Source of the DNA: an uncultured virus (IMG/VR IMGVR_UViG_3300013004_000029)
Taxonomy: Duplodnaviria; Heunggongvirae; Uroviricota; Caudoviricetes
Length of the DNA stretch: 20,000 nt
Strand: one strand, 5' to 3'
IMG/VR virus record: IMGVR_UViG_3300013004_000029
Below the pieces are notes generated by a model. It made no database searches and was not told where the DNA came from. It saw only the letters and a program-made list of their open reading frames with translations. The translations under genes and the position numbers were made by a program. Below, piece by piece: positions 5,421 to 20,000 of the stretch. The first letter of the stretch is position 1. Every line of letters starts with the position of its first letter.

Positions 5421-5427
5421 ATACACC
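5421..5427 (-). promoter_or_regulatory. GGTGTAT motif, candidate late promoter (copy 3)
   Basis: At the TerL stop, about 46 nt upstream of the portal ATG at 5375. Confidence 0.45.
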
Positions 5428-7466
5428 TATTCTCTATATATTCCTTTATATATGTCTTCGTTTACTGCGGATGTAAACCATTCTGGTCCTTTATATAGTG
5501 TTCCTTGACAATTGACTATATTCCTACGATTTTCACCTATGATATCATATTCGACTGGCTGTAAAGTTAATCGGCTTTGTCTTGCTAACATATTTGCTAT
5601 TAATAATGAACTATATCGGTCTTTTCTTAATCTACCCTTTTTACCGTTTGGTAGCTTAACTTCTGGAGTATCCCATCTATCTCTTGAATTAGGACCTGTG
5701 CTTGTTTGTGACATAACTATTGTTGTCAATTCATTTTTAAGTTCTTCTATTTCAAGAATGCATTCACTTACGCTATCATAAATATTATGTGTTAAATCTG
5801 TTGTCATAATATCTTTACCTTCAGCATCTAATGCTAGTCCGAGAGTTAAACCATCGAACCTAGGAAATAATAGTGTTTTATCTTCTAGGTCTTTTCTTAA
5901 TCCATGATTTGCTTGACTAGTCCATTCTGCCTTAGCAAACTGTACGAGTTCTATGATATGTTGTCCCGGTTGATTATCTGTGTCTTTGGATTTATTGTAA
6001 TCAATAACTGGCCATAATAGTGTTTCACCATCTTCTAGCTTGGACGGATCATGCAATGCTTCTTCGATGGCTACACCACCACCCTGAGCATCCATACCAA
6101 TACGTGAACATGGAAATGTTTTCATAAGATTTCTAATTTTTCTTGCACAAAACCCATAGAAATCATGTTCTTTAACTAATCCTGTCTTTTGTCTTTCTTT
6201 AAAGTTATTTCTATTAGTTGTCCAACAATATACAACTCTTGAGTGATCTTGATATGCTTCTAGTATAACTATACTGAAATTATCTTGTTCACTAGCAGGA
6301 TCGATTCCATAGATATATTGTTTAGATGAATTACCTGTAATCACAGCATCAAATATGATAGGATTAGAATTTATTACTACGGGATTAGAGTCATTGACTA
6401 CGCAGCTCTCAATTAAACTACGCTTAAAAAATCCATTACTATCAGACGTAAAACAAGCACCATATTCCATATTATATATGCCAGTATGAATAGTGGCTTT
6501 TGCTCTACTTACCTGTTTATCATCCATGAAGCCTTTTGGAATAAGCTCATATGGGATTCTAATAATGCTATAATCTTTCCAATTAAAATTAATAGGAACT
6601 TCACCTTTGAAGATTTCTTCTAATTTATGAGGATCTCCTTTGCTCTCTATAATTGCTTTATATCTATTCCAATATTGTGCGAAATGTTTAAAGGAATAAT
6701 CTGCTGTACCACTAATGATAGCTTGATTACCCATTTTTGTATTTAATGATTCTAGCTGTTCATTCCATAGCCCAGCTTCTATCATAGCTTCTCTTTTGGC
6801 TTGTTCTTTAACATTTTGTATAGGACTGGCCGAAACTGCTGCGAAGCCTGAAACAACTGTCTCATAAATATCTGGAGATATAGATGCAAATTCGTCAGCA
6901 ATAATAATATGAGCGCGTAAACCTCTAATTTTACTTCCGTCGCCCATCGGCACAGCAATAGTCCAACTGTCTCCTAGTCGTATTGTACATCTATCAACGT
7001 CTCGACGAGGACCGTCATCATTACCGTTGTAGATGCTTCTAAGAATAGGACTATTTCTCCACATGGTTTCCATGTACTCAAAGATAATCTTACTCTGTCT
7101 GAAAGCTGCACCAACGATAACTATTTTAGTTCCTGGATAAAATGTACAACGCAATAGAGAATATAAGGCTAGTAAAAATGATTTACCCCAACCACGACTA
7201 GCAATATACATTGGAAAAGCTCTAACCCAAAATTCTTGTAAAATTAATATTTGTATTGGATGTAGTTCTATATTAAATAAAAGCTTACATGTTGATCCAA
7301 TATAGTCAGGACTCCTAAGTAATCTAAGCAGATGCAGGTCCGGATTTTCTATATCCTTTTCTGATCTGTGTATCATTGGATTACGATCTATAGATAGGAC
7401 AGATAAATCACCTAGTCCTAGCCAAGCATCTTCAAATATCTTTTTCTGACTTTCCTTCAAGTTCAT
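5427..7466 (-). CDS. terL: Terminase large subunit
   Basis: Walker A 'ASRGWGKS', Walker B 'HIIIADEF', 'IRGLRA', coupling-like 'IISGT', and RNase H-like nuclease motifs 'YGIDPA' and 'KDRYSS'. Confidence 0.92.
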   Translation of the reverse strand: MNLKESQKKIFEDAWLGLGDLSVLSIDRNPMIHRSEKDIENPDLHLLRLLRSPDYIGSTCKLLFNIELHPIQILILQEFWVRAFPMYIASRGWGKSFLLALYSLLRCTFYPGTKIVIVGAAFRQSKIIFEYMETMWRNSPILRSIYNGNDDGPRRDVDRCTIRLGDSWTIAVPMGDGSKIRGLRAHIIIADEFASISPDIYETVVSGFAAVSASPIQNVKEQAKREAMIEAGLWNEQLESLNTKMGNQAIISGTADYSFKHFAQYWNRYKAIIESKGDPHKLEEIFKGEVPINFNWKDYSIIRIPYELIPKGFMDDKQVSRAKATIHTGIYNMEYGACFTSDSNGFFKRSLIESCVVNDSNPVVINSNPIIFDAVITGNSSKQYIYGIDPASEQDNFSIVILEAYQDHSRVVYCWTTNRNNFKERQKTGLVKEHDFYGFCARKIRNLMKTFPCSRIGMDAQGGGVAIEEALHDPSKLEDGETLLWPVIDYNKSKDTDNQPGQHIIELVQFAKAEWTSQANHGLRKDLEDKTLLFPRFDGLTLGLALDAEGKDIMTTDLTHNIYDSVSECILEIEELKNELTTIVMSQTSTGPNSRDRWDTPEVKLPNGKKGRLRKDRYSSLLIANMLARQSRLTLQPVEYDIIGENRRNIVNCQGTLYKGPEWFTSAVNEDIYKGIYRE

Positions 7467-7911: not shown

Positions 7912-8173
7912 TTTTCTTGTCCTGCAAAATTTTAAAAAATACAGATTCATAGGAGTCTTCCATACCCTGAATCATTTTGTGGTGTTGTTTACATAATGTT
8001 ATTCCATTATTAACATCATACCTTAAGGCTGGATAATTAGCCCATGTTCTTATATGGTGAGCATTTAATTTTTTCTTATTTATACATCCTGGCCACTGAC
8101 AGCAAAAACTATCTCTTGTATAAACATCTTTTCTCCATTTTTTATATATTGGATCATCATAGTTTCTAAACAT
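7895..8173 (-). CDS. HNH endonuclease
   Basis: 'WRKDVYTRDSFCCQWPGC...AHHI...DVNNGITLCKQHH', the pattern of small terminase-associated HNH proteins. Confidence 0.88.
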   Translation of the reverse strand: MFRNYDDPIYKKWRKDVYTRDSFCCQWPGCINKKKLNAHHIRTWANYPALRYDVNNGITLCKQHHKMIQGMEDSYESVFFKILQDKKNDRLQ

Positions 8174-9179
8174 AGCTATATGCTTTAATATCAGAGTTAA
8201 CCATATCTTCTACTAATTCTGCAAAAGAAATTTCTGGAACCCAACCTAGCTGTTTACGAGCCTTTTCTGGAGATCCTTTAAGATATTCTACTTCTGCTGG
8301 ACGATAAAGATTAGCATCAATTTCAACATGTTGAGTATAGTCTAAATTAACTAAGCCAAATGCTATCTTAAGAAAATCTAATACTGTTCTAGTTTCTCCG
8401 GTAGCTATAACATAATCATCAGGAACATCTTCTTGCAACATCATCCACATTGCTCTTACGTAATCTTTGGCGTGTCCCCAATCTCTATGAATATTAATAT
8501 TGCCTAATTTAAGCGTACTGGTTGTATCTATACCTGTAACTAATTTGCCTATGTATTTTGTTATTTTACGAGTTACAAAATTTTCGCCTCTTCGTGGACT
8601 TTCGTGATTAAACAGAATACCGGAACACCCAAACAGACCATAGCCATCTCTATAAATTTGTACCATTCGATGAGCGGCTAGTTTGGAAACGCCGTATGGA
8701 CTTTGTGGCATAAATTCTGTATTCTCGTCTTGATATGTTTCATTAGAAGCATAGTCTACAGATACGTTTCTCCCAAACATTTCACTAGTACTAGCCTGAT
8801 AAAACTTGGTATCTGATGAATAATTTCTTATAGCTTCTAGTATATTAATAACTCCAGTAGTATTAATATCTATAGTTGTACTTGGTTGTTTGAAACTAGT
8901 ACCAACATGGCTTTGTGCAGCTAAATTATAGAATTCATTTGGTTGAAACTTTGAAACCATTGCTGATACTGCGGAAGGATCAGTCAAGTCGAATTCTTCT
9001 AGCTGGAAGTTAGGATTATGAATGATATTATTTAATCTTTGAAAATTATTACTGCTACTTCTGCGATATAAACCTATTACAGTATATCCTTTGGATAAAA
9101 GAAGTTCTGATAAATATGATCCGTCTTGTCCGGTCACTCCGGTAACCATAGCAATTTGATTATATTCTTTAGTTTTCAT
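8166..9179 (-). CDS. gmd: GDP-mannose 4,6-dehydratase
   Basis: 'TGVTGQDGSYL', 'YNLAAQSHV', 'YQASTSEMFG', 'SPYGVSK', 'GILFNHESPRRGENFVTRKI', 'RDWGHAKDYV'. Probable start is ATG 9179. Confidence 0.96.
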   Translation of the reverse strand: MKTKEYNQIAMVTGVTGQDGSYLSELLLSKGYTVIGLYRRSSSNNFQRLNNIIHNPNFQLEEFDLTDPSAVSAMVSKFQPNEFYNLAAQSHVGTSFKQPSTTIDINTTGVINILEAIRNYSSDTKFYQASTSEMFGRNVSVDYASNETYQDENTEFMPQSPYGVSKLAAHRMVQIYRDGYGLFGCSGILFNHESPRRGENFVTRKITKYIGKLVTGIDTTSTLKLGNINIHRDWGHAKDYVRAMWMMLQEDVPDDYVIATGETRTVLDFLKIAFGLVNLDYTQHVEIDANLYRPAEVEYLKGSPEKARKQLGWVPEISFAELVEDMVNSDIKAYSYV

Positions 9180-9180
9180 A

Positions 9181-9987
9181 TTATTCTTCCACACTTTCCG
9201 GTGTTAAAAAAGGTTTGTCTACGGATCCATCATTGTATTGATGCAGTGAAAACATTTTGTCTCTGGCCTTTTGAGTTGCCATAGCAAGTATTTCCATCTG
9301 CTTTCCTTCTTTCTCTCGTATTTCTTCGTCTTCTAGCATTCTTATTAGTCCTACCCATGAACTTTTACCATCTTCTACTCGTTTAATTCTTTGTTCCCTA
9401 GTTGCCTTAAGATCCTTACTGATTTTTTGCTGTTCATTAAGGAGCTTTGTATATTCATTAGTATAATTAGCGATGCTGTTGCGGGCAAAGCTAAGTTGTG
9501 TTTCAAGGTTGGCCAGTTTTGGAATATCTCTTTGATCTTCTGGTTTAGCATATTCAGCATCCACAAGCTTTTGTAATTTGTCGGTATCTGCTATGTGACG
9601 TTTACGCTCTTTCATGCTGCGATTAATAAGAATATCGATAGTTATAAATTGTTTGATTTGTAATTCTTCTGCTGGTAAAACGTCTTCTCTAAATTGTTTT
9701 ATTAAACCTATCCATGTATCTTCAAAGTATTTTAATTCTCCATTATTATCATCAAATTGACGAACAATTTCTTCCCAGAAAGTTTTAGCATGGAGTTTGT
9801 ACCTTAAGGTTTCGTCATCTTTCTTTTCGTCTGGGGAAGCAAAAAGCTTTTGTTCTTCTATGTATCTCTTAATAGGTGCTGTGCTTCTGTTTAGATACTC
9901 AGCAATCTGTTCTATTGACAATGAATTTACATTGTCTCTTATGTATTTTTCTTCATCAAGAGATAATTGGCCGCGCTTTTTATTCAT
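9181..9987 (-). CDS. HTH plus coiled-coil protein, candidate terminase small subunit
   Basis: N-terminal HTH-like 'LSIEQIAEYLNRSTAPIKRYI' followed by long helices. It lies upstream of TerL; the function is inferred from that position. Confidence 0.45.
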   Translation of the reverse strand: MNKKRGQLSLDEEKYIRDNVNSLSIEQIAEYLNRSTAPIKRYIEEQKLFASPDEKKDDETLRYKLHAKTFWEEIVRQFDDNNGELKYFEDTWIGLIKQFREDVLPAEELQIKQFITIDILINRSMKERKRHIADTDKLQKLVDAEYAKPEDQRDIPKLANLETQLSFARNSIANYTNEYTKLLNEQQKISKDLKATREQRIKRVEDGKSSWVGLIRMLEDEEIREKEGKQMEILAMATQKARDKMFSLHQYNDGSVDKPFLTPESVEE

Positions 9988-10615
9988 TGTCGGTTATTAT
10001 TTCCTGTATATGTTTTTGTAATTTTTTAATATCTGCCTTATGAACCTTAACCCCGTGTTTTAACCGCAAATAAATCTCCCTATGTTCCCCTTGAAGAACC
10101 TCATCCAACTTCTTGATCAATTCTTTGTTACCCATAATATCCTGAAAATCTTCACTATCTTTATTACGTAGTAATGATTGGTCTTCTATTGTGGTGGGTT
10201 TCATAATATTTTTTTTACTATCATTCCTATCATGCCACTTTTTATATAACTCACACTCCATTTGATTGGCAAACTCTGTACATTGATTATTAGAGTTTTT
10301 AAAGTGTTTATCATAAAATGGACAGGTTAAACAAGGCTTGTCAGGACGCTTGTAATTGTCTCTTTTGTAATTAAAGAGCCTATTTCTTACATGGGTCCAC
10401 AAGAAATTTTCCAAAGGTCTTTTATTATCGTATTTTTCTAATCCTTCCAGGGCAAATACAGCTGCCTGCTGATACATATCATCATAGCTATGATAACCGA
10501 ATTTGAATTTATGGCCCAATCTTTTGCTTATATTATCAAGTACTTTTAAAAATTCTTCTTCGCTAACATTATTTGGTAATGAACTATTATTTGTTGTCTT
10601 CTTTTTTTTCTTCAT
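9980..10615 (-). CDS. Sigma-70-family-like factor with a Cys4 insertion
   Basis: Region-2-like 'DDMYQQAAVFALEGLEKYDNKRPLENFLWTHVRNRLFNYKR', then CxxC-x13-C-x8-C, then a short region-4-like helix 'LQGEHREIYLRL'. Confidence 0.7.
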   Translation of the reverse strand: MKKKKKTTNNSSLPNNVSEEEFLKVLDNISKRLGHKFKFGYHSYDDMYQQAAVFALEGLEKYDNKRPLENFLWTHVRNRLFNYKRDNYKRPDKPCLTCPFYDKHFKNSNNQCTEFANQMECELYKKWHDRNDSKKNIMKPTTIEDQSLLRNKDSEDFQDIMGNKELIKKLDEVLQGEHREIYLRLKHGVKVHKADIKKLQKHIQEIITDNE

Positions 10616-11166: not shown

Positions 11167-12993
11167 ATGTGTGGTATAGTAGCTTACAAGGGCGGGCAGA
11201 AATGCTTGCCCTTTTTGCTTGAAGGATTAAAAAGATTAGAATACCGGGGCTATGATAGTGCCGGAATTAGTTACATTATGTTTCATAAGATTGTGACTAA
11301 AAAGCAGGCAGGATGTGTTGCAGATCTAAAAGCAATTATTGATACTGAACATGGATCTACTGCCAGGGTGGGTATTGGCCATACTAGGTGGGCAACTCAT
11401 GGCAAACCATGTTCAAGAAATGCTCATCCTCATAATACTTTAGACAATCGATTAAGTATGGTTCATAATGGTATTATTGAGAATTATTTAACTTTAAAGG
11501 AAGAGTTATTACAAAAGGGATATCTATTTAAGAGTGATACCGATAGTGAGGTTTTGCTCTATTTAATTTATGATTATCTTATTAAAGAAACTGGGGATTT
11601 GTGCGAAGCTGTAAAACTAGCTTCAGAAAGAGCTACCGGGGCCTTTGCTATTGTCATATTAGACATATTAAATCCAAATACTCTGGTTTGTGCAAAAAGA
11701 GGGAGTCCTTTGGTTGTGGGCGAAAATGATGGAGAGTTCTTTGTGGCATCTGATGGTATAGCTATACATGAACATTGTAATGAAATTATAGTGCTAGAGG
11801 ATAATACTATATGTAAAATTAGTGATAAAATAGAATTATTTAATATGGATGGTCAAATAGTATCACCGTGTAATGTACAAAAATTATATTATCAGTTATT
11901 CAATATAGAAAAGGGTGAGTTTGATCACTTTATGTTAAAAGAAATATACGAACAACCACGATGCATAGAAGATTGTACTAGTGGGCGAATCGATGGATAT
12001 AGAATGATGTTGGGGGGACTTGTGGGATATGAAGATAAAATATCTAACGCTAAACATATAACTATATTAGGTTGTGGTACTAGCTGGCACGCTGGATTAT
12101 TAGCCAAGTATTATTTAGAGGAATTTTGTCATATTAAAGTTAGTGTGGAATATGCTAGTGAATATAGATATAGAAAGCCATATATAGATAGCGAAGATAT
12201 AGTTATAGGTATTAGTCAAAGTGGTGAAACTGCTGATACTTTGAGCGCATTAGAGCTAGCTAAAAGTAAGGGAGCTTTTATTATTGGTATTTGTAATACT
12301 CCTAATTCCTCTATGGTTAGATTAACTGATTGTGGAATATTTCTTAGAGCAGGAATGGAGATTGGTGTTGCAAGTACAAAAGCGTTTACAACACAGGTCG
12401 TATCTCTCCTAATGTTAAGTTTATGGATAGAACAAAATAAATCTGAGCGTCCTATGGATATTGATTATAGAAAAGCTCTTATTAATGATTTGAGAAATTT
12501 ACCTGATACTATGAGAAAAGCTTTGGATGGACAAAAAATAGAATCAATAGCTAAAAAGTTTATTAAAGCTAAAAATTGTTTGTATCTTGGGCGTCAATAT
12601 AATTTTCCTGTGGCTTTAGAGGGTGCATTAAAATTAAAAGAAATTAGTTATGTTCATGCTGAAGGATATCCGGCAGCAGAAATGAAACACGGACCTATTG
12701 CTCTAATAGATAAAAATATGCCTGTGGTAGTAGTAACTAATCACAAGAACCATTATGATAAGATATATAATAATATTAAAGAAATTCAAGCTAGAGAAGG
12801 AAAAATAATATCTATTAATGATAGTAATAGTTCTATTGGAGACTATAATATATGTGTACCTCAAATTATTGATCCGTTATCTCCGTTGGTTTCTATAATT
12901 CCTTTGCAACTGTTTGCTTATTATAGTGCTGTAATTAGAGGGTGTAATGTGGATAAACCTAGGAATTTAGCTAAAAGTGTAACCGTGGAGTAA
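11167..12993 (+). CDS. glmS: Glutamine-fructose-6-phosphate transaminase (isomerizing)
   Basis: N-terminal 'MCGIV', 'LEYRGYDSAG', 'GHTRWATHG', 'SQSGETAD', 'EGALKLKEISY' and C-terminal 'PRNLAKSVTVE'. Full length, 608 aa. Confidence 0.97.
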   Translation: MCGIVAYKGGQKCLPFLLEGLKRLEYRGYDSAGISYIMFHKIVTKKQAGCVADLKAIIDTEHGSTARVGIGHTRWATHGKPCSRNAHPHNTLDNRLSMVHNGIIENYLTLKEELLQKGYLFKSDTDSEVLLYLIYDYLIKETGDLCEAVKLASERATGAFAIVILDILNPNTLVCAKRGSPLVVGENDGEFFVASDGIAIHEHCNEIIVLEDNTICKISDKIELFNMDGQIVSPCNVQKLYYQLFNIEKGEFDHFMLKEIYEQPRCIEDCTSGRIDGYRMMLGGLVGYEDKISNAKHITILGCGTSWHAGLLAKYYLEEFCHIKVSVEYASEYRYRKPYIDSEDIVIGISQSGETADTLSALELAKSKGAFIIGICNTPNSSMVRLTDCGIFLRAGMEIGVASTKAFTTQVVSLLMLSLWIEQNKSERPMDIDYRKALINDLRNLPDTMRKALDGQKIESIAKKFIKAKNCLYLGRQYNFPVALEGALKLKEISYVHAEGYPAAEMKHGPIALIDKNMPVVVVTNHKNHYDKIYNNIKEIQAREGKIISINDSNSSIGDYNICVPQIIDPLSPLVSIIPLQLFAYYSAVIRGCNVDKPRNLAKSVTVE

Positions 12994-12996
12994 ATT

Positions 12997-13917
12997 ATGA
13001 AAATTCTTTTAACTGGCGGATATGGTTTTCTGGGGCGATATGTATATGATAAATTAATAGCTAGTGGATATAATGATACAAAAATATTTGGATCTAAAGA
13101 GTATGATTTAAGAGATAAAGATCAGACACTAAAGCTTGTAGATAGTTATAAACCTGATGCTGTTATTCATTTAGCTGCTACTGTTGGTGGCATAGGTGCC
13201 AACATGAAAAATCCTGGAGTGTATTTTTACGAAAATATGGTTATGGGATTAAATCTGATAGAGAGCAGCAGAGTTGTAGGAATTAATAAATTTGTGCAGG
13301 TTGGGACGGTGTGTTCTTATCCTAAATATTGTGCTGTGCCATTTAGAGAAGATGATTTGTGGGAAGGCTATCCTGAAGAAACAAATGCTCCTTATGGAGT
13401 TGCTAAGAAAGCGTTATATGTAATGTTAGAAGCATATAAAAAACAATATAACTTTAATAGTACTATTTTGATACCTTGTAATTTATATGGTCCATACGAT
13501 AATTTTAATCCAGATTCTAGTCATGTTATACCAGCATTAATTAAAAAGGTGGCGGAAGCCAAGGAATATGGAGACAATGGCATAGAGTGTTGGGGAACTG
13601 GTAGTGCTACTAGAGAATTTTTATATGCTGAAGATGCAGCAGAGGCTATTGTTAAAAGTATTAAAATAGATACTGCTCCGTCTCCTATTAATCTTGGTAC
13701 TGGTGAGGATATTAGTATAAAAAATTTAATTGACACCATATGTAGTGTTATGGACTATAATGGAACAATTGTGTGGGATACATCTAAGCCAGATGGTCAA
13801 CCTAGAAGAAAATTAGATGTATCATTATCTAACAAAATTTTAGGATGGAAAGCTAAAACTCAATTGCGTGATGGTTTACAAAAAACAATAGAATGGTATT
13901 TAAGGAGAAGTACATGA
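12997..13917 (+). CDS. fcl: GDP-L-fucose synthase (GDP-4-keto-6-deoxymannose epimerase/reductase)
   Basis: 'GGYGFLG', 'HLAATVGGIGAN', 'CSYPK', 'EETNAPYGVAKK', 'SHVIPALI', 'KPDGQPRR'. Confidence 0.93.
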   Translation: MKILLTGGYGFLGRYVYDKLIASGYNDTKIFGSKEYDLRDKDQTLKLVDSYKPDAVIHLAATVGGIGANMKNPGVYFYENMVMGLNLIESSRVVGINKFVQVGTVCSYPKYCAVPFREDDLWEGYPEETNAPYGVAKKALYVMLEAYKKQYNFNSTILIPCNLYGPYDNFNPDSSHVIPALIKKVAEAKEYGDNGIECWGTGSATREFLYAEDAAEAIVKSIKIDTAPSPINLGTGEDISIKNLIDTICSVMDYNGTIVWDTSKPDGQPRRKLDVSLSNKILGWKAKTQLRDGLQKTIEWYLRRST

Positions 13918-14240
13918 AAAATTTATTAGCGTCTTTTATTTTTGTAGTACTACTATGTTCGTCTTCATACGCTCAACAAGTAGTAGTACCTGTGACTAGT
14001 TATGTTCCAACTACAGTAGTTAATAATGTTGTTGTACCGGTATATAGTACGTACTATAGACCTGTAACTACTTACTACTATAATCCTGTTGTGGCTGCTC
14101 CTGTGTGGATAGCTCCTCCATACTACAATTATATTGTACAAGAACGAGCGGGCTTGTTTGGATGTCAAAGAACTTATGTTAATATAGTTCCTAATTATCC
14201 TGGATTTTTTTATGGAAATCAAATTATTAGACCATACTGA
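13914..14240 (+). CDS. Secreted V/P/Y/T-rich low-complexity protein
   Basis: AAGGAG RBS and an ATGA overlap with the fcl stop. Signal peptide 'MKNLLASFIFVVLLCSSSYA', then 'VVVPVTSYVPTTVV...YYRPVTTYYYNPVV'. Confidence 0.7.
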   Translation: MKNLLASFIFVVLLCSSSYAQQVVVPVTSYVPTTVVNNVVVPVYSTYYRPVTTYYYNPVVAAPVWIAPPYYNYIVQERAGLFGCQRTYVNIVPNYPGFFYGNQIIRPY

Positions 14241-14643
14241 TAATATTTCTCAGTATCTAGAATGTGTGGCCTCACTAAATAATAGTGGGGTCGTATTGTG
14301 TGACGAGGAAAGCATTAAGTTTGCTCTGGAAGCTAGACCAAGTAATATATTAACATTCGTAGGAATAGTAGATAATAATATTGTCTGTACTGCTACTACA
14401 ATTATGGAGCGTAAATTAAGATATAAACAGCTATGCTGTCATATAGAAGATGTTGCTGTTCATCCATCTCAACAAGGAAAAGGGTATGGAAAAGAAATTG
14501 TAGATCATTGTATCAAAGTAGCAAAAAAGAATAATTGTTATAAGGTTAAATTAAATTGTAATCCTAGTTTAGTGGAATTCTATAAAAAAATTGGTTTTGA
14601 TGATGGTGGAATGCATATGGTTTTAAATCCTATTGACACCTGA
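14212..14643 (+). CDS. GNAT acetyltransferase, GNA1-like (glucosamine-6-phosphate N-acetyltransferase)
   Basis: 'ERKL...CHIEDVAVHPSQQGKGYGK...CYKVKLNC...FYKKIGF' follows the GNA1 pattern (HIEDV..., CYKxxLxC). In the same operon as glmS. Confidence 0.75.
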   Translation: MEIKLLDHTDNISQYLECVASLNNSGVVLCDEESIKFALEARPSNILTFVGIVDNNIVCTATTIMERKLRYKQLCCHIEDVAVHPSQQGKGYGKEIVDHCIKVAKKNNCYKVKLNCNPSLVEFYKKIGFDDGGMHMVLNPIDT

Positions 14644-14704: not shown

Positions 14705-16303
14705 ATGAACAAAAAAGTTCTAGGCATAGAGAATTTGGAATCTAGAACCCTCTTGTCAGTAGCTCCTAATGATACTTTCTTAAATAACCAATGGGGTTTA
14801 AATAATATATCGTCGTTTGGAGCTTGGAGTCAAAATACAGGCTCTAAAAGCGTTGTGGTGGCTATTATAGATAGCGGTATAGACCTAACACATAAAGATC
14901 TCAAAGATAATTTATGGATAAATCCTGGAGAAATTCCAAATGATGGTATAGATAATGAGGGGGATGGATATATAGATGATGTTAATGGATGGAATTTTGC
15001 AAACAATAATAATGACGTGCAGGACAGATATGGTCATGGAACTCATATTGCTGGAATAATTGGTGCAGTGGGGAACAATTCTTTGGGTGTTGCTGGCGTT
15101 AATTGGAATGTTAGTCTAATGCCTCTTAAGTTTTTAGATGATAAGGGGGTTGGAGATACGGGTGGCGCTTTGGCTGCTATGGATTATATCCTAATGATGA
15201 AGAACTCTTACCATATAAATATTGTGGTTGCTAATGCTAGCTGGGGTGGAGGAATTGGCTTTAGTAATATGTTGTATGGGGAGATTCAAAAATTAAATGA
15301 TGCTAATATACTACTAAGTGTGGCTGCTGGAAATAATGGTAGTGATAATGATATTACTTTAAGATATCCTAGTTGTTTTGATATTCCTAATATTATTAGT
15401 GTGGGGGCTTTGGGATATGATGGAATACATTTAGCATCATATTCTAATTATGGCGCCGTTCAAGTTGATCTGGCTGCTCCTGGTGGTATGATATATTCAA
15501 CATTGCCATGGAATAGTTATGGGTATTTAAGTGGAACTAGTATGGCTGCTCCTTTTGTTACCGGGACTGTGGCTTTATTAAATGCAGTTAAGTCTAATTT
15601 GAGTGTTGCAGAAGTTAAGAATGCTATATTTGCCGGGGTGGATAAAATACCAGAGTTGTTTGGTAAGGTTGCTACTAATGGAAAATTAAATGTTGAGGCT
15701 GCTGTTGATAGTTTGCTGGGAATTCCGTATGAACATAATAAGGCTCCTATAGGATCTATTAACTATCAGTCATTAAGGCTTGTTGGGGGCTGGGCAAAAG
15801 ATCCTGATAGTTTGGTATCTGTTAATGTTCAATTATGGATAGATAATAATCTGGTAGGATCAAAGATAACAAACTCTGATGGAGGTTTCGTTTTTAATCT
15901 GGGTGGCCTGACAGTAGGGGATCATATTATAAATATCAAGGCTCAGGACGTTCAAAGCAAATCTTGGACAGATATAGCTTCGACCAAGGTTACTATAAAG
16001 CCTCCTGTGGTTCATGTTGGCTTCTTATCAATCAACAGAGTTGTTGGCTGGGCGTATAGTGAAAGATCTGGTTCTTCTCCTGTGGTTGTTAGAATACTAG
16101 TGAACAATAGACTGGTGGCATCTCAGTGGGCTAATGGATATAGACCAGCATTACAAGCTTCTTTGGGTAGCTCGTATCATGGTTTTAATATCTCATTAGA
16201 TAGGATCTGGTTTCATAGAGGATCAAATAATATAAAGATTCAGGTATACGACCCTATTTCAAAACAAGTTTCAATAGCATGGACAGGAACAACATATAAA
16301 TAA
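14705..16303 (+). CDS. S8 (subtilisin-like) serine protease with a planctomycete-type N-terminal motif and two C-terminal beta-rich repeats
   Basis: Catalytic 'IIDSG', 'HGTHIAG' and 'GTSMAAP', oxyanion 'AAGN'. Probable start is ATG 14705 (MNKKVLGIENLESRTLLS) after TAAGGA. C-terminal repeats 'VGGWAKDPD...VQLWIDN' and 'VVGWAYSER...VRILVNN'. Confidence 0.92.
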   Translation: MNKKVLGIENLESRTLLSVAPNDTFLNNQWGLNNISSFGAWSQNTGSKSVVVAIIDSGIDLTHKDLKDNLWINPGEIPNDGIDNEGDGYIDDVNGWNFANNNNDVQDRYGHGTHIAGIIGAVGNNSLGVAGVNWNVSLMPLKFLDDKGVGDTGGALAAMDYILMMKNSYHINIVVANASWGGGIGFSNMLYGEIQKLNDANILLSVAAGNNGSDNDITLRYPSCFDIPNIISVGALGYDGIHLASYSNYGAVQVDLAAPGGMIYSTLPWNSYGYLSGTSMAAPFVTGTVALLNAVKSNLSVAEVKNAIFAGVDKIPELFGKVATNGKLNVEAAVDSLLGIPYEHNKAPIGSINYQSLRLVGGWAKDPDSLVSVNVQLWIDNNLVGSKITNSDGGFVFNLGGLTVGDHIINIKAQDVQSKSWTDIASTKVTIKPPVVHVGFLSINRVVGWAYSERSGSSPVVVRILVNNRLVASQWANGYRPALQASLGSSYHGFNISLDRIWFHRGSNNIKIQVYDPISKQVSIAWTGTTYK

Positions 16304-16400
16304 ACTGGCCAATTCTATATAGGGGTGCCTACTTTTTTTAGACCACCGCAGGGTTTCCCTAATTTTTCGACAGTACTTACCCAAAACGAAAAAACCCCCC

Positions 16401-16478
16401 TAAGTTGTTGAGGGGTATGGACTTACGTTGAGTTTTATCCGCAAAATTTGACGTAAGTTCTTTATCTGTATGTACTTA
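16401..16478. repeat. Double-palindrome element, copy 1
   Basis: TAAGT(16401)-N15-ACTTA-N28-TAAGT(16454)-N15-ACTTA(ends 16478). Confidence 0.9.
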
Positions 16479-16521
16479 TGTCATATCTCGTAAAAAAACC
16501 AAAAAAATTTTCTCTAAGGTA

Positions 16522-16550
16522 TTGACACGGGAAAAGACGATATGTATAAT
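16522..16550 (+). promoter_or_regulatory. Consensus sigma70 promoter
   Basis: TTGACA-N17-TATAAT, with an A/T-rich stretch upstream. Confidence 0.9.
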
Positions 16551-16578
16551 GCGTTCAACACAAGAGGAGATGAGAAAA

Positions 16579-16818
16579 ATGGTTACCTTGAACACCCGAG
16601 ACGAGTTGGTTGAGTTCCTGTACGGTGCGAACAGCACTTGCCCCGATACTCTGGTTGGTGTGGCTCGTATTGGTGGAGAGTTGCTTGAGGAGGCTCTGAC
16701 CTGTGAGCTTTCTGACGGTACTTTCAGCATCAACGATTTCTTCCCGATGGGCGATGAGGGTGAGGGTATCACCGTTGATCGTGAGGGAACGATCTTGAAC
16801 GACTATCTGTACTACTGA
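16579..16818 (+). CDS. Small acidic hypothetical protein (79 aa)
   Basis: GAGGAG 9 nt before ATG 16579. The ORF-track start (TTG 16522) is the -35 box. 16 D/E, 3 R, no K. Confidence 0.75.
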   Translation: MVTLNTRDELVEFLYGANSTCPDTLVGVARIGGELLEEALTCELSDGTFSINDFFPMGDEGEGITVDREGTILNDYLYY

Positions 16819-16824
16819 TCAGTA

Positions 16825-16852
16825 TTGACACGATCAAAAATCTTGCTAAAAT
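16825..16852 (+). promoter_or_regulatory. Sigma70 promoter
   Basis: TTGACA-N16-TAAAAT with extended TGn; spacer resembles that of the 19294 promoter. Confidence 0.8.
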
Positions 16853-16877
16853 AGGGACATCAGAAAGAGAGAAAGAA

Positions 16878-17066
16878 ATGAATAGCAACTACTTCCAGCC
16901 ATCGTTTGACACAATGCAGACTAGCACGATTCAGTTGACCTTGCGTGAGGCACAGATACAACTCAATCATGCGAAGGGTGCGGTGAGAGAGGTACTGTGC
17001 GAAGTGATTAGGGCTGCTGCTACTGAACTTCTGATCAGGTATAGAGCAAATAAGAATACGCTCTAA
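16878..17066 (+). CDS. Hypothetical protein (62 aa)
   Basis: Own promoter and purine-rich leader. The stop TAA forms the first bases of repeat copy 2. Confidence 0.65.
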   Translation: MNSNYFQPSFDTMQTSTIQLTLREAQIQLNHAKGAVREVLCEVIRAAATELLIRYRANKNTL

Positions 17067-17140
17067 CATACTGATACATAAGTACTTACGACTAGCGGGC
17101 GGGCCGAGTTTGACGTAAGTGTATGCTGCATAATGACTTA
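17064..17140. repeat. Double-palindrome element, copy 2
   Basis: TAACA-N15-ACTTA-N27 (GCGGGCGGGCCG core)-TAAGT-N15-ACTTA. Confidence 0.9.
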
Positions 17141-17144
17141 CGTT

Positions 17145-17166
17145 AACCTTACGATATTGTAAGGTT
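17145..17166. promoter_or_regulatory. Operator-like palindrome AACCTTAC-N6-GTAAGGTT
   Basis: Perfect 8-bp arms just upstream of a -35 box; second copy at 18827-18846. Confidence 0.6.
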
Positions 17167-17201
17167 CAAGCTATTGACACTCATAAGCCGATAAGTATAA
17201 T
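17166..17201 (+). promoter_or_regulatory. Sigma70 promoter interleaved with a sigma28-like element
   Basis: TTGACA(17174)-N16-TATAAT(17196) and TCAAG(17166)-N16-GCCGATAA(17187). Confidence 0.8.
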
Positions 17202-17230
17202 AGGGACAACACGAGAGGAAAGGAAAAAAG

Positions 17231-17380
17231 ATGACGATTCAAGTGCAAAACACAGTTCGCCGGTTGGTTGCTCGTCACGGATATTCGGCTACGTTTGTTC
17301 GCCATATGGGCGAAGGTATCTGCCTGTATAGCATTGGTGGTATTTTCTATCGTATTCGTGGTGACGGTACGATCCTCTAA
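17231..17380 (+). CDS. Hypothetical protein, 49 aa (MTIQVQNTVRRLVARHGYS...DGTIL)
   Basis: Not in the ORF track. AAGGA RBS; it fills the gap between two promoters exactly. Confidence 0.7.
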   Translation: MTIQVQNTVRRLVARHGYSATFVRHMGEGICLYSIGGIFYRIRGDGTIL

Positions 17381-17394
17381 ACAAGCGTACAGTA

Positions 17395-17422
17395 TTGACT
17401 CGCTAGAATAATTCGCTACAAT
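17395..17422 (+). promoter_or_regulatory. Sigma70 promoter
   Basis: TTGACT-N16-TACAAT. Confidence 0.7.
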
Positions 17423-17445
17423 ACAAGCACACAAAGGAAAAGAAA

Positions 17446-17646
17446 ATGATCAAGCACAACAACAACCTGAGTAAGATTTTCGCTGCTATGACCGCTGGTA
17501 AGTATATCGGGGTGATCGACCCCAAGGGTAATGCTCACTGCGGATTGGTGAATAGCATCATGAGGGAAGACGGTAGCGGAAAGAATTGGATCGTGACGAT
17601 CAGTAATCGCTGTGTGAATGAGAAAGTTTTTATTCATGCCTGCTAG
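17446..17646 (+). CDS. Hypothetical protein (66 aa)
   Basis: AAAGGA RBS and own promoter. Confidence 0.7.
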   Translation: MIKHNNNLSKIFAAMTAGKYIGVIDPKGNAHCGLVNSIMREDGSGKNWIVTISNRCVNEKVFIHAC

Positions 17647-17649
17647 GGC

Positions 17650-17678
17650 TTGACTGTGCAGAATCCATAGTGTAGAAT
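17650..17678 (+). promoter_or_regulatory. Sigma70 promoter
   Basis: TTGACT-N17-TAGAAT. Confidence 0.75.
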
Positions 17679-17696
17679 ACCGAAAAGGAGTTACTC

Positions 17697-17798
17697 ATGA
17701 TCAGCCTGATTATTGACCTGTGCTTCGCTTCTGCGATTACCATTCTTCTGTTCTTTGTGTTTCGAGATATCGAAACATTCTACAATAAGCATATGTGA
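17697..17798 (+). CDS. Small membrane protein, 33 aa (MISLIIDLCFASAITILLFFVFRDIETFYNKHM)
   Basis: Not in the ORF track. AAGGAG RBS, one hydrophobic helix, stop 2 nt before repeat copy 3. Confidence 0.7.
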   Translation: MISLIIDLCFASAITILLFFVFRDIETFYNKHM

Positions 17799-17800
17799 CC

Positions 17801-17878
17801 TAAGTGGTTACGACATAAGCACTTACGAATAGGCGGGCGGGCCGCATTCGTTGTAAGTTGTTTTGCAGCAGGGGGTTA
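17801..17878. repeat. Double-palindrome element, copy 3
   Basis: TAAGT-N15-ACTTA-N28 (GGCGGGCGGGCCGC core)-TAAGT-N15-GGTTA. Confidence 0.9.
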
Positions 17879-17887
17879 CGACAATAC

Positions 17888-17904
17888 AGCAATCTGTGTG
17901 CCAA
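17888..17904 (-). promoter_or_regulatory. Sigma54 -24/-12 match
   Basis: Minus strand TTGGCAC-ACAGA-TTGCT, matching TGGCAC-N5-TTGCW. Confidence 0.65.
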
Positions 17905-17967
17905 ACTGATCAAAAAACCAGAAAAGTTTTGTCAAAATTTCTTGACACAAAAATTCGGATTTTTCTC

Positions 17968-18004
17968 TTGCAGACTCAAGTAGGGGATGGTATAATGTCG
18001 ATAT
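17968..18004 (+). promoter_or_regulatory. Sigma70 promoter (extended -10) with overlapping sigma28-like element
   Basis: TTGCAG-N17-TATAAT with TGn extension; TCAAG(17976)-N16-GTCGATAT(17997). Confidence 0.75.
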
Positions 18005-18035
18005 AAGAAGTAAGAGAGAAAGAGAGAGAAGAAAA

Positions 18036-18257
18036 ATGAGAAAGCCTCCGAAGACTTCGACGATCAAGGGTAAGATCAACGCCTACGCCTATAAGTGTGG
18101 CTTTACGTTCCACCCCCAGACGGATGGGACGTATGCTCTGTTCGACATTCACATGGGATACTACGTTTGCCGTGGTTCGCATGATAGGGTTGTGCAGTTC
18201 GTGGTAGATGAGTTGTGGGCCAAGTATTACCGGCTCAACAATGCGTATTCTGCCTAA
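18036..18257 (+). CDS. Hypothetical protein (73 aa)
   Basis: Directly downstream of the promoter and a long purine-rich leader. Confidence 0.7.
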   Translation: MRKPPKTSTIKGKINAYAYKCGFTFHPQTDGTYALFDIHMGYYVCRGSHDRVVQFVVDELWAKYYRLNNAYSA

Positions 18258-18273
18258 TGCTCGAAAGGAAACC

Positions 18274-18372
18274 ATGACGATTCTCGACTACTTGACTCTG
18301 TTTGGCCTCTTGACTGCTTGTGCATTCGTGACGTATACTGTGCATGAAGTTGGTAACGCTATCCACGATTGA
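18274..18372 (+). CDS. Small membrane protein, 32 aa (MTILDYLTLFGLLTACAFVTYTVHEVGNAIHD)
   Basis: Not in the ORF track. AAAGGA RBS and one hydrophobic helix. Confidence 0.65.
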   Translation: MTILDYLTLFGLLTACAFVTYTVHEVGNAIHD

Positions 18373-18397
18373 CTCAACGATTATTGAAAGGGAAAAG

Positions 18398-18697
18398 ATG
18401 ACACACTCCGAAGCGGTTGCTCTGGTTCGCGGTAAGACTAATCGAGATACTCGCAAGGTTGGCAACAACACCTATGCCTATATCCAAGCGGATGGCAGCG
18501 TTGCCATCGAGTTGCATGGCACGAATGTTGTGGTAATCTATCCCGACAATACTGCGATGCTCAATAGTGGCGGATGGCATACGCACACCACGAAGAAGCG
18601 TATCAACCAGTATTCACCCGTACACGTATACCAGAAGAACTACGAATGGTACCTGAACGACGGTACACCATTCGAGGATCGTATGATCGTGGGTTGA
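18398..18697 (+). CDS. Hypothetical phage protein (99 aa)
   Basis: Probable start is ATG 18398 after GAAAGGGAAAAG. The motif 'LHGTNV...LNSGGWHTHTTKKRIN' looks like uncharacterised phage proteins; no family name assigned. Confidence 0.75.
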   Translation: MTHSEAVALVRGKTNRDTRKVGNNTYAYIQADGSVAIELHGTNVVVIYPDNTAMLNSGGWHTHTTKKRINQYSPVHVYQKNYEWYLNDGTPFEDRMIVG

Positions 18698-18699
18698 CG

Positions 18700-18777
18700 C
18701 AAAGCCTTGCCAGCAAAGAACTTGCGGCGAGGCGGGCGGGCCGCGCTAGACGTAAGTGCTTATACTGCAACAACTTA
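18700..18777. repeat. Double-palindrome element, copy 4
   Basis: CAAAG-N15-ACTTG-N28 (GGCGGGCGGGCCGC core)-TAAGT-N15-ACTTA. Confidence 0.85.
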
Positions 18778-18804
18778 TGTCCTACCTAATGAAATCGGTT
18801 AGAA

Positions 18805-18820
18805 TGGCACGGTACTTGCT
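18805..18820 (+). promoter_or_regulatory. Sigma54 -24/-12 match
   Basis: TGGCAC-GGTAC-TTGCT. Confidence 0.7.
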
Positions 18821-18826
18821 GTGCGT

Positions 18827-18846
18827 AACCTTACGAGATTGTAAGG
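18827..18846. promoter_or_regulatory. Operator-like palindrome CCTTAC-N6-GTAAGG, copy 2
   Basis: AACCTTACGAGATTGTAAGG; 19 of 20 positions identical to 17145-17164. Confidence 0.6.
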
Positions 18847-18857
18847 AAATTTTTGTG

Positions 18858-18893
18858 TTGACACTCAAGATAGGGTTGGTATAATGCCGATAT
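18858..18893 (+). promoter_or_regulatory. Sigma70 promoter with overlapping sigma28-like element
   Basis: TTGACA-N16-TATAAT with TGn extension; TCAAG(18865)-N16-GCCGATAT(18886). Confidence 0.85.
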
Positions 18894-18916
18894 AAGAGAA
18901 AGAGGAGATGAGAGCA

Positions 18917-19099
18917 ATGAGTGGTGTGAAGGTTGGTGATGTGGTTGAGGTGAAAAGCCTTGACGGTATGCGAAAGTGTGGTATTGTAGAGCAAATCATT
19001 GGGGGAAACTTTCGGATTCGTCTTTCTGGACAGTACGGATATGGTGATTGGTTCTCGGGTGGTGAAATCGTATCTCACGCAAAACTGGGCAAAAAGTAA
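18917..19099 (+). CDS. Small hypothetical protein, SH3/KOW-like pattern
   Basis: 'VKVGDVVEVKS...GIVEQI'. GAGGAG favours ATG 18917; the ORF track starts at 18908. Confidence 0.65.
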   Translation: MSGVKVGDVVEVKSLDGMRKCGIVEQIIGGNFRIRLSGQYGYGDWFSGGEIVSHAKLGKK

Positions 19100-19111
19100 G
19101 GAATAGGTAAT

Positions 19112-19297
19112 ATGTACGAACTTGGCGACAAGGTGAAGATCAAGAGCATGAATCCCCAAGTGGTGGGGGAAATCGTCCTGTGGCATTATGACGAAGGAAA
19201 CGTCTGGACGGTCGAACTGAGCGATGGTAGGCATGAGGATTTTGGTGACCATGATTTGAGTCCGGTGTGTGATGCCTATGGACACTCTTGGGCTTGA
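19112..19297 (+). CDS. Small hypothetical protein, SH3/KOW-like pattern
   Basis: 'YELGDKVKIK...GEIV...WTVELSDG...FGDHDL'; TAAGG-containing leader. Confidence 0.65.
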   Translation: MYELGDKVKIKSMNPQVVGEIVLWHYDEGNVWTVELSDGRHEDFGDHDLSPVCDAYGHSWA

Positions 19298-19322
19298 CAC
19301 GACCAAAAACTTTTGATAGAAT
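19294..19322 (+). promoter_or_regulatory. Sigma70 promoter
   Basis: TTGACA-N17-TAGAAT with TGn; the upstream gene's TGA stop lies inside the -35 box. Confidence 0.8.
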
Positions 19323-19346
19323 CTTGGAAAAGAAAGAGAGAAGAAG

Positions 19347-19562
19347 ATGTTCAAGAAGTTTGTAGATGCTAAGGCTAGGATTTGGGGTGATGAGGCTCAT
19401 GCCTGTACGATTGTTTATGAGGTTGCAAAGGGTAAGTTTTACGCTGAGTGTGATTCGATCCTTGAGACGAGGGTTCTCAATGAGAAGAATTACGAAGAAG
19501 TGTTGAACGATATGTTTTACGATTACTGTGTTGAAAATGCTTCCTACATGGGTGTTTCCTGA
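19347..19562 (+). CDS. Hypothetical protein (71 aa)
   Basis: Own promoter and purine-rich leader. Confidence 0.7.
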   Translation: MFKKFVDAKARIWGDEAHACTIVYEVAKGKFYAECDSILETRVLNEKNYEEVLNDMFYDYCVENASYMGVS

Positions 19563-19580
19563 CAATCCGAAAGGGAAATT

Positions 19581-19796
19581 ATGAATGATGCAGAAATCGA
19601 AATGTGGGCAACTTTGTTGATTTGGACAATTGGTGCTATTGTATTCGGATCGACAGTTGTATGGTGGATTTTCTTACGGGCTTTTAAGCTAATCGACGAC
19701 TATCTTCAAGATAGGTATTATGCTAAAATGGGGTGGAAGAAGATGAAAGATGATAGTGGGAAGACTTGGTATGTAGGATACGGGGATTGGCCGTAA
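19581..19796 (+). CDS. Small single-pass membrane protein (71 aa)
   Basis: Hydrophobic 'WATLLIWTIGAIVFGSTVVWWIFL'; GAAAGGGA RBS. The stop TAA forms the first bases of repeat copy 5. Confidence 0.7.
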   Translation: MNDAEIEMWATLLIWTIGAIVFGSTVVWWIFLRAFKLIDDYLQDRYYAKMGWKKMKDDSGKTWYVGYGDWP

Positions 19797-19871
19797 ACTA
19801 TTGTGAAATAAAGACTTAGAACAAGCCCGGCGGGCAAAATTTGCTGTAAGTGGTTATGAGACAAAGACTTA
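19794..19871. repeat. Double-palindrome element, copy 5
   Basis: TAAAC-N15-ACTTA-N28 (GCCCGGCGGGC core)-TAAGT-N15-ACTTA. Confidence 0.9.
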
Positions 19872-19880
19872 GGACTAATT

Positions 19881-19897
19881 AGCAAATGGTGTGCCAA
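19881..19897 (-). promoter_or_regulatory. Sigma54 -24/-12 match
   Basis: Minus strand TTGGCAC-ACCAT-TTGCT. Confidence 0.65.
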
Positions 19898-19960
19898 TTG
19901 CTCAAACAATAAGCAAAAGTTTTGTCAAAATCTCTTGACACAAAAATTTCTGGATTTTGC

Positions 19961-19997
19961 TTGAAAGCTCAAGAATCGTCTGGTATAATGTCGATAT
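19961..19997 (+). promoter_or_regulatory. Sigma70 promoter (extended -10) with overlapping sigma28-like element
   Basis: TTGAAA-N17-TATAAT with TGn; TCAAG(19969)-N16-GTCGATAT(19990). Confidence 0.75.
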
Positions 19998-20000
19998 AAG

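Follow-up and report, generated by a model that had tools for sequence, protein, structure and literature searches.

The stretch analysed here, called the window throughout, is a 20,000-nt piece of an uncultured Caudoviricetes virus (IMG/VR record IMGVR_UViG_3300013004_000029). From 16.3 kb on, its plus strand carries only small open reading frames (ORFs) of 32-99 amino acids (aa) behind consensus sigma-70-type promoters. Five alignable copies of a ~90-nt element, all on the plus strand between 16398 and 19880, delimit four modules in this region, and together the modules hold twelve small ORFs (16570..19796, plus strand). The copy-to-copy intervals are 663, 737, 899 and 1094 nt, with 2, 3, 3 and 4 ORFs per module; both series agree with the counts of a first-pass annotation made from the sequence, and the ORFs that it had called unrelated fall into different families.

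Four of the copies are joined to the stop codon of the gene before them, as that annotation had described. Copy 2 (17059..17147, plus strand) contains the TAA stop (17064-17066) of the ORF at 16878-17066, and copy 5 (19788..19880, plus strand), which carries the core variant GCCCGGCGGGC, contains the TAA (19794-19796) of the ORF at 19581-19796. Copy 3 spans 17795..17885 (plus strand), and its repeat begins at 17801, 2 nt past the TGA (17796-17798) of the ORF at 17697-17798. Copy 4 (18694..18782, plus strand) overlaps the TGA (18695-18697) of a 99-aa ORF, and here too the repeat begins, at 18700, 2 nt past the stop; this copy matches the family consensus best, and a 5' hairpin is predicted in it at ~18704-18733. 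Copy 1 (16398..16485, plus strand), between a subtilase gene and the first array promoter, is degenerate and has an AT-rich centre in place of the GC core. Its hairpin of 18 pairs (16419-16460) is followed by a T-rich tail, TTTATCTGTA, and copy 1 is the only one of the five that a terminator scan flags. The 16-bp stem reported earlier for this copy (16421-16458) is recovered, slightly longer, and the accompanying remark that no copy has a U-tract holds for copies 2-5 but not for copy 1. Just upstream of copy 1, positions 16390-16416 read A6-C6-N11-G4, which on the minus strand is a short GC hairpin and then T6. Antisense transcription that leaves the array might stop there; the stem is weak and draws no flag in the terminator scan.

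The coordinates of the copies come from a sequence-only model built on related copies, and the window copies were in its training set, so they match it by construction. The same model found no further copy elsewhere in the window at E<0.6, and an independent nhmmer seed recovered copies 2-5. The heptamer ACTTACG occurs 9 times in the window against 1.41 expected (0/200 shuffles reach 9), with 7/9 occurrences inside 16421-18757, and the core GCGGGCGGGCC occurs 3 times against 0.40 expected (2/200 shuffles reach 3).

A sigma-70-type promoter that matches the consensus at 12/12 positions (16522..16550, plus strand) opens module 1, and further 12/12 promoters lie at 17174 and 18858. Other promoter-like sites were found at 16825, 17395, 17650, 19294 and 19961; the four modules contain at least 8 sigma-70-type sites, and nearly every gene has its own promoter. 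A conserved promoter/leader block at 17922..18007 (plus strand) is repeated at 19915-20000 with 80% identity and in part at 18851-18896. Homologues of the small ORFs occur on many related contigs at 30-94% amino-acid identity and in shuffled order. Pfam searches with 23 conserved array proteins gave a match for one family alone, leaving 22/23 without a family. The match is Kyano_Gp96, a family of cyanophage T4-like viruses, to which the 99-aa ORF before copy 4 (18398-18697, plus strand) belongs with an E value of 7.6e-10. Genes like it (family 2 in our grouping, in which the ORF families include some overlapping spurious frames) are the most widespread module genes and usually stand immediately upstream of an element.

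To collect relatives, we used a pattern made of the core plus GTAAGT, which matched 52 stretches of IMG/VR viral contigs. An nhmmer profile identified 194 sites, with 128 unique sequences among them, in 45 of 54 sources; neighbouring sites are usually separated by 0.45-2.4 kb (median 978 nt). In whole relatives, every site among the matches listed lies in one ~20-kb small-gene block, and complete genomes hold 17-25 sites each: 25 in G002 (229 kb; 220.8-229.0 and 0.6-14.2 kb), 17 in G003 (205 kb; 100.5-119.7 kb) and 20 in G005 (29.7-49.2 kb). G004 and G006 have 7 sites each at a contig end, and G001, the record nearest to the window, is a 9.4-kb fragment without elements. The large terminases of element-bearing relatives are 75-84% identical to that of the window, which reaches ~24% identity at best with any isolate phage. 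The carriers are one clade of uncultured lake phages of ~190-230 kb, and the run listings for the clade name lake water. Only one match was found among 185,579 species genomes, namely L053, a 3.6-kb (3601-nt) contig binned into a lake Alphaproteobacteria metagenome-assembled genome. This contig, with four elements and array genes, is probably phage DNA, and its bin is at best a faint hint to the host. A literature search returned no published description of the element; the core word GGCGGGCGGGCC turned up only in unrelated human papers, and nothing relevant was found on phage intergenic repeats in freshwater metagenomes.

The consensus of the element reads (T)GACGTAA.CCTTG-N5-TAAGGACTTA.G.C.AG-GCGGGCGGGCCG-..TTTGACGTAAGT.CTTA-N6-AA.GACTTACGAC. 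Two 29-nt dyad units (A and B) of the form CGTAAGT.CTT-N7-AAG.ACTTACG occupy model columns 13-41 and 66-94; they lie 53 nt apart centre to centre, or ~5 helical turns, and flank the G-rich core GGCGGGCGGGCC, so that the entire element is an imperfect palindrome of ~86 nt. Motif columns are more than 90% conserved, without compensatory change. Stop codons are built into the consensus, TGA at column 10 and TAA at column 15. We examined 85 elements with a conserved ORF ending nearby and observed the stop within columns 1-16 in 40 and within columns -8 to 16 in 57; it fell at columns 9-11 in 28 and at column 15 in 7. Downstream, a promoter-like site follows within 250 nt for 86/122 elements (median 57.5 nt), the distance to the sigma-70 promoter ranging from 21 to 112 nt (10th-90th percentile), and 106/125 elements are oriented with transcription. 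Small-gene modules end, on their 3' side, in this strongly constrained boundary signal, and host-type promoters come after it. Orthologous copies, that is, those with the same upstream gene on different contigs, are 75% identical, compared with 65% for copies at the same locus and 64% for random pairs. Since copies at one locus are no closer than random ones while orthologous copies reach 75%, the copies are old and evolve with their flanks; comparison of their sequences indicates that selection, rather than homogenisation or recent copying, keeps the shared motif.

We then followed the modules across near-identical contigs. In five comparisons, representing at least 4 separate events, a module of 452-634 nt was present on one side and absent on the other, both breakpoints lay within elements, and a single chimeric element remained. 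The elements of L014 at 4064-4155 and 4698-4789 (coordinates on L contigs refer to their oriented copies) are represented by one chimeric element in L047, L020 and L039, and those of L047 at 306-400 and 812-901 by one in L014. Indels of the same kind separate L016 from L043, L033 from L027 and L053 from L027, the last possibly being the same event as in L033. Read from left to right, the switch between parents occurred in the core in 2 comparisons, in unit B in 2 and at the 3' edge in 1. This variation in crossover position points to homologous rather than site-specific exchange; with like-oriented copies of one ~90-bp sequence spaced about 1 kb apart, recombination between them removes, adds and rearranges modules.

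Ends of blastn blocks from 28 non-redundant sources fell within elements in 452/2220 cases (20.4%), although elements make up 7.9% of positions (2.6-fold enrichment), and a second, 1.8-fold excess was seen 51-200 nt downstream of the element, at the promoter and first gene. Gene adjacency was kept across an element in 119/603 cases (19.7%), compared with 410/1018 (40.3%) within modules. The gene-shuffling array proposed at first pass is supported by these results, and the expectation that breakpoints among relatives would lie in the element is borne out by the five indels, with both ends inside elements, but not by the many block ends that lie outside. A recombinase, which the same annotation had suggested looking for, was not found: in five relatives, three of them complete, we detected neither Phage_integrase (PF00589; 0/5, controls positive 14/14) nor Resolvase (PF00239; 0/5). 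The element is a preferred but non-exclusive crossover point for the gain, loss and reordering of modules by homologous exchange.

Between an element and the next promoter, the spacer is pieced together from conserved but optional modules. About a third of elements have, at their 3' flank and in either orientation, a 16-nt motif, TGGCAY-N5-TTGCW, that matches the sigma-54 -24/-12 consensus. We counted 47 such sigma-54-type boxes (26 reversed, 21 forward) in 149 kb of relatives and 0 matches to a control pattern; 44 of the boxes lie within -3 to +47 nt of an element end, and 12/13 boxes in three whole genomes are inside the array. Three perfect boxes (TGGCAC-N5-TTGCT) were found in the window: one at 17888..17903 (minus strand), which abuts copy 3 and points back into the element, a forward box at 18805..18820 (plus strand), 22 nt past copy 4, and a third at 19881..19896 (minus strand), abutting copy 5. 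Reversed boxes would start antisense RNA at the element edge. A search of the five relatives for an enhancer-binding ATPase (PF00158) gave nothing convincing, with one weak AAA-type hit in G002.

Another optional module is a small hairpin with a T-rich tail, CCTTACGAGATTGTAAGG (CCTTAC-N6-GTAAGG), which lies at 18826..18850 (plus strand), recurs at 17144-17164 and is shared by many relatives. The junction is completed by the sigma-70 promoter and an AT-rich block upstream of it. The -10 region of junction promoters is often followed by GCCGATAA or GTCGATAT, resembling the sigma-28 (FliA) -10 GCCGATAA; at 17991-18007, 18880-18896 and 19984-20000 of the window, the -10 TATAAT runs directly into GTCGATAT or GCCGATAT. 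Relatives show TAAAG-N~15-GCCGATAA, and a loose sigma-28-type pattern occurs 79 times forward and 11 times in reverse in the 149 kb.

We also examined whether the symmetry of the element is maintained as structure. The whole element folds as an imperfect hairpin of ~86 nt with a mean of -27.4 kcal/mol, and its arms pair in 71.6% of cells, compared with 28-42% when partners are slid. However, this pairing equals column composition: column shuffles gave 71.2 +/- 0.4, and 83/500 were at or above the observed value. No long-range column pair rose above noise in mutual information or Watson-Crick excess, the best z being 3.9 on a 1-in-122 cell and the others at most 3.2. The inner arms that the first-pass annotation described as able to fold can pair, but no better than their composition predicts. 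The 5' hairpin (columns ~19-31 with 37-48) behaved differently. Its native arms folded at -8.75 kcal/mol compared with -6.99 for swapped arms and were better in 83/122 elements (p 3.6e-6), and it gave the top signal (t = -4.6) in a register-free scan of 171 segment pairs from 91 representatives. Shuffling its inner part gave z = -1.69, and it is somewhat more stable on the sense strand. In a fixed register (alignment A2), it stood weakly above shuffles (58.6% vs 57.4%; 21/500 as high; the +1 register equal); this count is weak because the hairpin register differs between copies, and we therefore relied on the register-free arm-swap tests. The covariation that the first-pass annotation had proposed to test is thus present in the arms of the 5' hairpin and absent from the long palindrome, unit B and the central hairpin. 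Given this difference, the heptamers and core are conserved as sequence, and the 5' hairpin alone as structure. A pairing of columns 37-45 with 73-81 (t = -3.3) failed correction for the 171 tests. We also discarded an intrinsic (Rho-independent) terminator of the hairpin-plus-U-tract kind, as the consensus TTTG after the core is predicted to pair and copy 1 alone is flagged. CsrA-loop (GGA), MotA-box, NtcA, G-quadruplex and Chi-like readings were dropped, as the relevant bases are not consistently present or oriented.

Divergent variants of the element occur in other small viral contigs (L013:2964-3594 and L034:347-3070). The centre of the L013 variant is a near-perfect GC hairpin. In the L034 variant, unit A is a perfect 13-bp inverted repeat in which both half-sites have changed together (AACTCG...CGAGTT), a change compatible with a hairpin and with an altered-specificity dimer site alike.

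The first 16 kb of the window carry phage protein genes, among them those for the portal (3183-5375, minus strand), the large terminase (5427-7466, minus strand), a cement protein, an ERCC4-type nuclease and an HNH nuclease. A sugar-nucleotide set at 8166-9194 (minus strand) and 11167-14643 (plus strand) comprises a GDP-mannose 4,6-dehydratase, a GlmS-like amidotransferase with SIS domains, an NAD epimerase and a GNAT acetyltransferase, and is adjoined by a 556-aa subtilase; these sugar-nucleotide genes may have a role in surface or DNA glycan modification. A 211-aa protein (9980-10615, minus strand) with a borderline Sigma70_r2 match (23.6 bits vs a cut-off of 24) may be a phage sigma-like factor. 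G+C is about 33% (32-36%) at 2-15 kb compared with 42-47% in the cassette array, and the arrays of 25 related loci average 42% with elements masked or not. A blastn search of 16300-20000 against isolate phages gave no match, a tRNA search found none, and Rfam gave two sub-threshold chance hits, none on an element copy and one in the junction after copy 5.

On balance, we think it probable that the ~20-kb early orphan-gene region is tiled by composite junctions of a terminator-promoter type, akin to the promoter-early stem-loops (PeSLs) of T4-type phages, and that the repeats form the conserved 3' boundary half of these junctions. An element begins at a module's last stop codon or slightly ahead of it, and the host-type promoter of the next module comes after the element. 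The element probably ends or insulates transcription of the upstream module, possibly by means of the 5' hairpin together with the G-rich core in the sense RNA, or by way of a factor specific for the strongly conserved motif. Its molecular job would be either such a transcription stop or insulator, which we favour, or a protein-binding site.

PeSLs have been described in RB49/phi1, T4/PST and KVP40/nt-1 (PMC2839356, PMC4122927). There, cassettes of a stem-loop and an early promoter mediate modular shuffling with crossovers in the motif (PMC2839356, PMC4122927). In reporter assays, transcription was terminated by PeSL stem-loops carrying polyG/polyC tracts, and crossovers were mapped inside these stem-loops (PMC2839356). 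Like PeSLs, the junctions described here recur between genes in an orphan-gene-rich, variable region. In both, a structured GC-rich element precedes a strong sigma-70-type promoter, which has an AT-rich part upstream and comes with a ribosome site, and related phages have gained or lost modules by crossovers inside the repeat. PeSLs have a simple Gn-loop-Cn stem; the element described here is instead a palindrome of ~90 bp, made of two units around a conserved core that is not a hairpin. It is fused to a stop codon, and a variable spacer, which holds an optional sigma-54-type box and small hairpin, separates it from the promoter. The phage group differs as well, at ~24% terminase identity to any isolate. 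Other features of PeSLs are terminator activity and mini-circles that form when neighbouring copies recombine.

In temperate phages, stoperators are spread across the whole genome as asymmetric sites of 13-14 bp to which an immunity repressor binds as a monomer. The element, in contrast, is ~90 bp long, dyad-symmetric and confined to one 20-kb region, and no integrase was found in the five relatives searched. It does resemble the stoperators of cluster A mycobacteriophages, as outlined in PMC9283540, in forming many conserved sites of fixed orientation in short intergenic spaces near stop codons, where stoperators are thought to stop elongation.

Several observations weigh against a PeSL-like boundary. 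Of the homology-block ends, about half fall beyond the zone from element to promoter, and the counts of ends of high-scoring segment pairs and of gene adjacencies are not independent events. The loci are an ascertained sample, since the collecting pattern fixes the core. In 19/125 elements, the core is inverted relative to transcription; these form a subtype at orthologous positions, in which the core alone is inverted and the flanks are unchanged. There is no U-tract behind the GC core, where the T run at columns 61-63 is just 3 nt and predicted to be paired. Arm swapping did not destabilise unit B, the central hairpin or the whole palindrome, indicating no co-variation of their arms, and the native arms of the whole palindrome even folded worse than chimeras (p 7e-4). 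The central hairpin was no more stable than with its inner 24 nt shuffled (z = -0.05), and heptamer pairs showed no bias for G-U over A-C (62 vs 63).

The foremost rival, which we regard as possible but rather unlikely, takes the element as a double-stranded DNA site for a two-fold symmetric, sequence-specific protein, with recombination as a by-product of its conservation. Such a protein could act as an operator or roadblock that shuts the early array, or as an enhancer for the adjoining sigma-54-type boxes. In its favour are motif columns conserved without compensation, two dyad units spaced by ~5 helical turns, a core conserved as sequence rather than structure and invertible between unchanged flanks, and boxes that hug the element ends and are nearly confined to the array. 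Yet we found no candidate binder, the 23 conserved array proteins lacking a Pfam DNA-binding domain, and no convincing enhancer-binding ATPase in the five relatives. In addition, only about a third of elements have a box, a reversed box would have its start site upstream of the element, the spacing from element to sigma-70 promoter is not constant, and a double-stranded site leaves the co-variation of the 5' hairpin unexplained.

We also entertain, more doubtfully still, the idea that the element is no passive hairpin but a recognition hub of two-fold symmetry, in which four half-sites surround the GC core on one helix face. A putative phage or host protein would bind it to switch the early array, to block read-through and to serve as enhancer or partner of the sigma-54-type boxes. 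If this were true, the boxes that point backwards, over half of the total, would send antisense transcription across the element and on into the early genes before it, and module shuffling would ride on a dedicated regulatory signal.

The RNase III (R) sites of phage T7 are conserved hairpin-capable elements between early genes, a description that fits the repeats equally. The first-pass annotation had offered, as one option, RNA-processing or stabilising hairpins of the T7 RNase III kind; in polycistronic early RNA, the element would then be a processing site of the RNase III type or a hairpin that stabilises 3' ends. The intergenic location, the predicted ~86-nt hairpin and its excess of pairing over slid partners agree with this option, but it found no comparative support in the column-composition, arm-swap and inner-shuffle tests: the pairing is that of the columns, variable columns are not compensated, native halves fold worse than chimeras, and heptamer pairs lack a sense-strand wobble bias. 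Moreover, the stems here show no covariation, and with a promoter in front of nearly every gene, separate messages do not depend on processing. We consider this option improbable.

A selfish miniature inverted-repeat transposable element, or an element of the repetitive extragenic palindrome type, that recently spread through intergenic spaces would likewise be palindromic, intergenic, multi-copy and placed beside stop codons. It is very improbable here, as same-locus copies are no more alike than random ones and less alike than orthologous ones, the sites are confined to one region and mostly one orientation, and the species genomes hold the single match on the short contig L053. An integron-like array with attC-like sites for a site-specific recombinase, the other option raised at first pass, shares with our array repeats that bound gene cassettes in one orientation and indel breakpoints in the repeats, but it is largely refuted and hardly credible, given no tyrosine or serine recombinase domain in the five relatives, no fixed crossover point, modules with their own promoters in place of promoterless cassettes, and many breakpoints elsewhere.

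These results extend modular shuffling of the PeSL type to large freshwater phages of an uncultured clade that is unrelated to T4. The chimeric elements that remain after module gain or loss are evidence at the nucleotide level, and they show concretely how phages in nature exchange orphan early genes. The element is unusually long and symmetric, its sequence is conserved without covariation, and a sigma-54-type box often accompanies it; these traits make it a promising place to look for a new kind of terminator, insulator or binding site for a regulator. With the model and alignment, early-region cassettes can be recognised on phage contigs from metagenomes.

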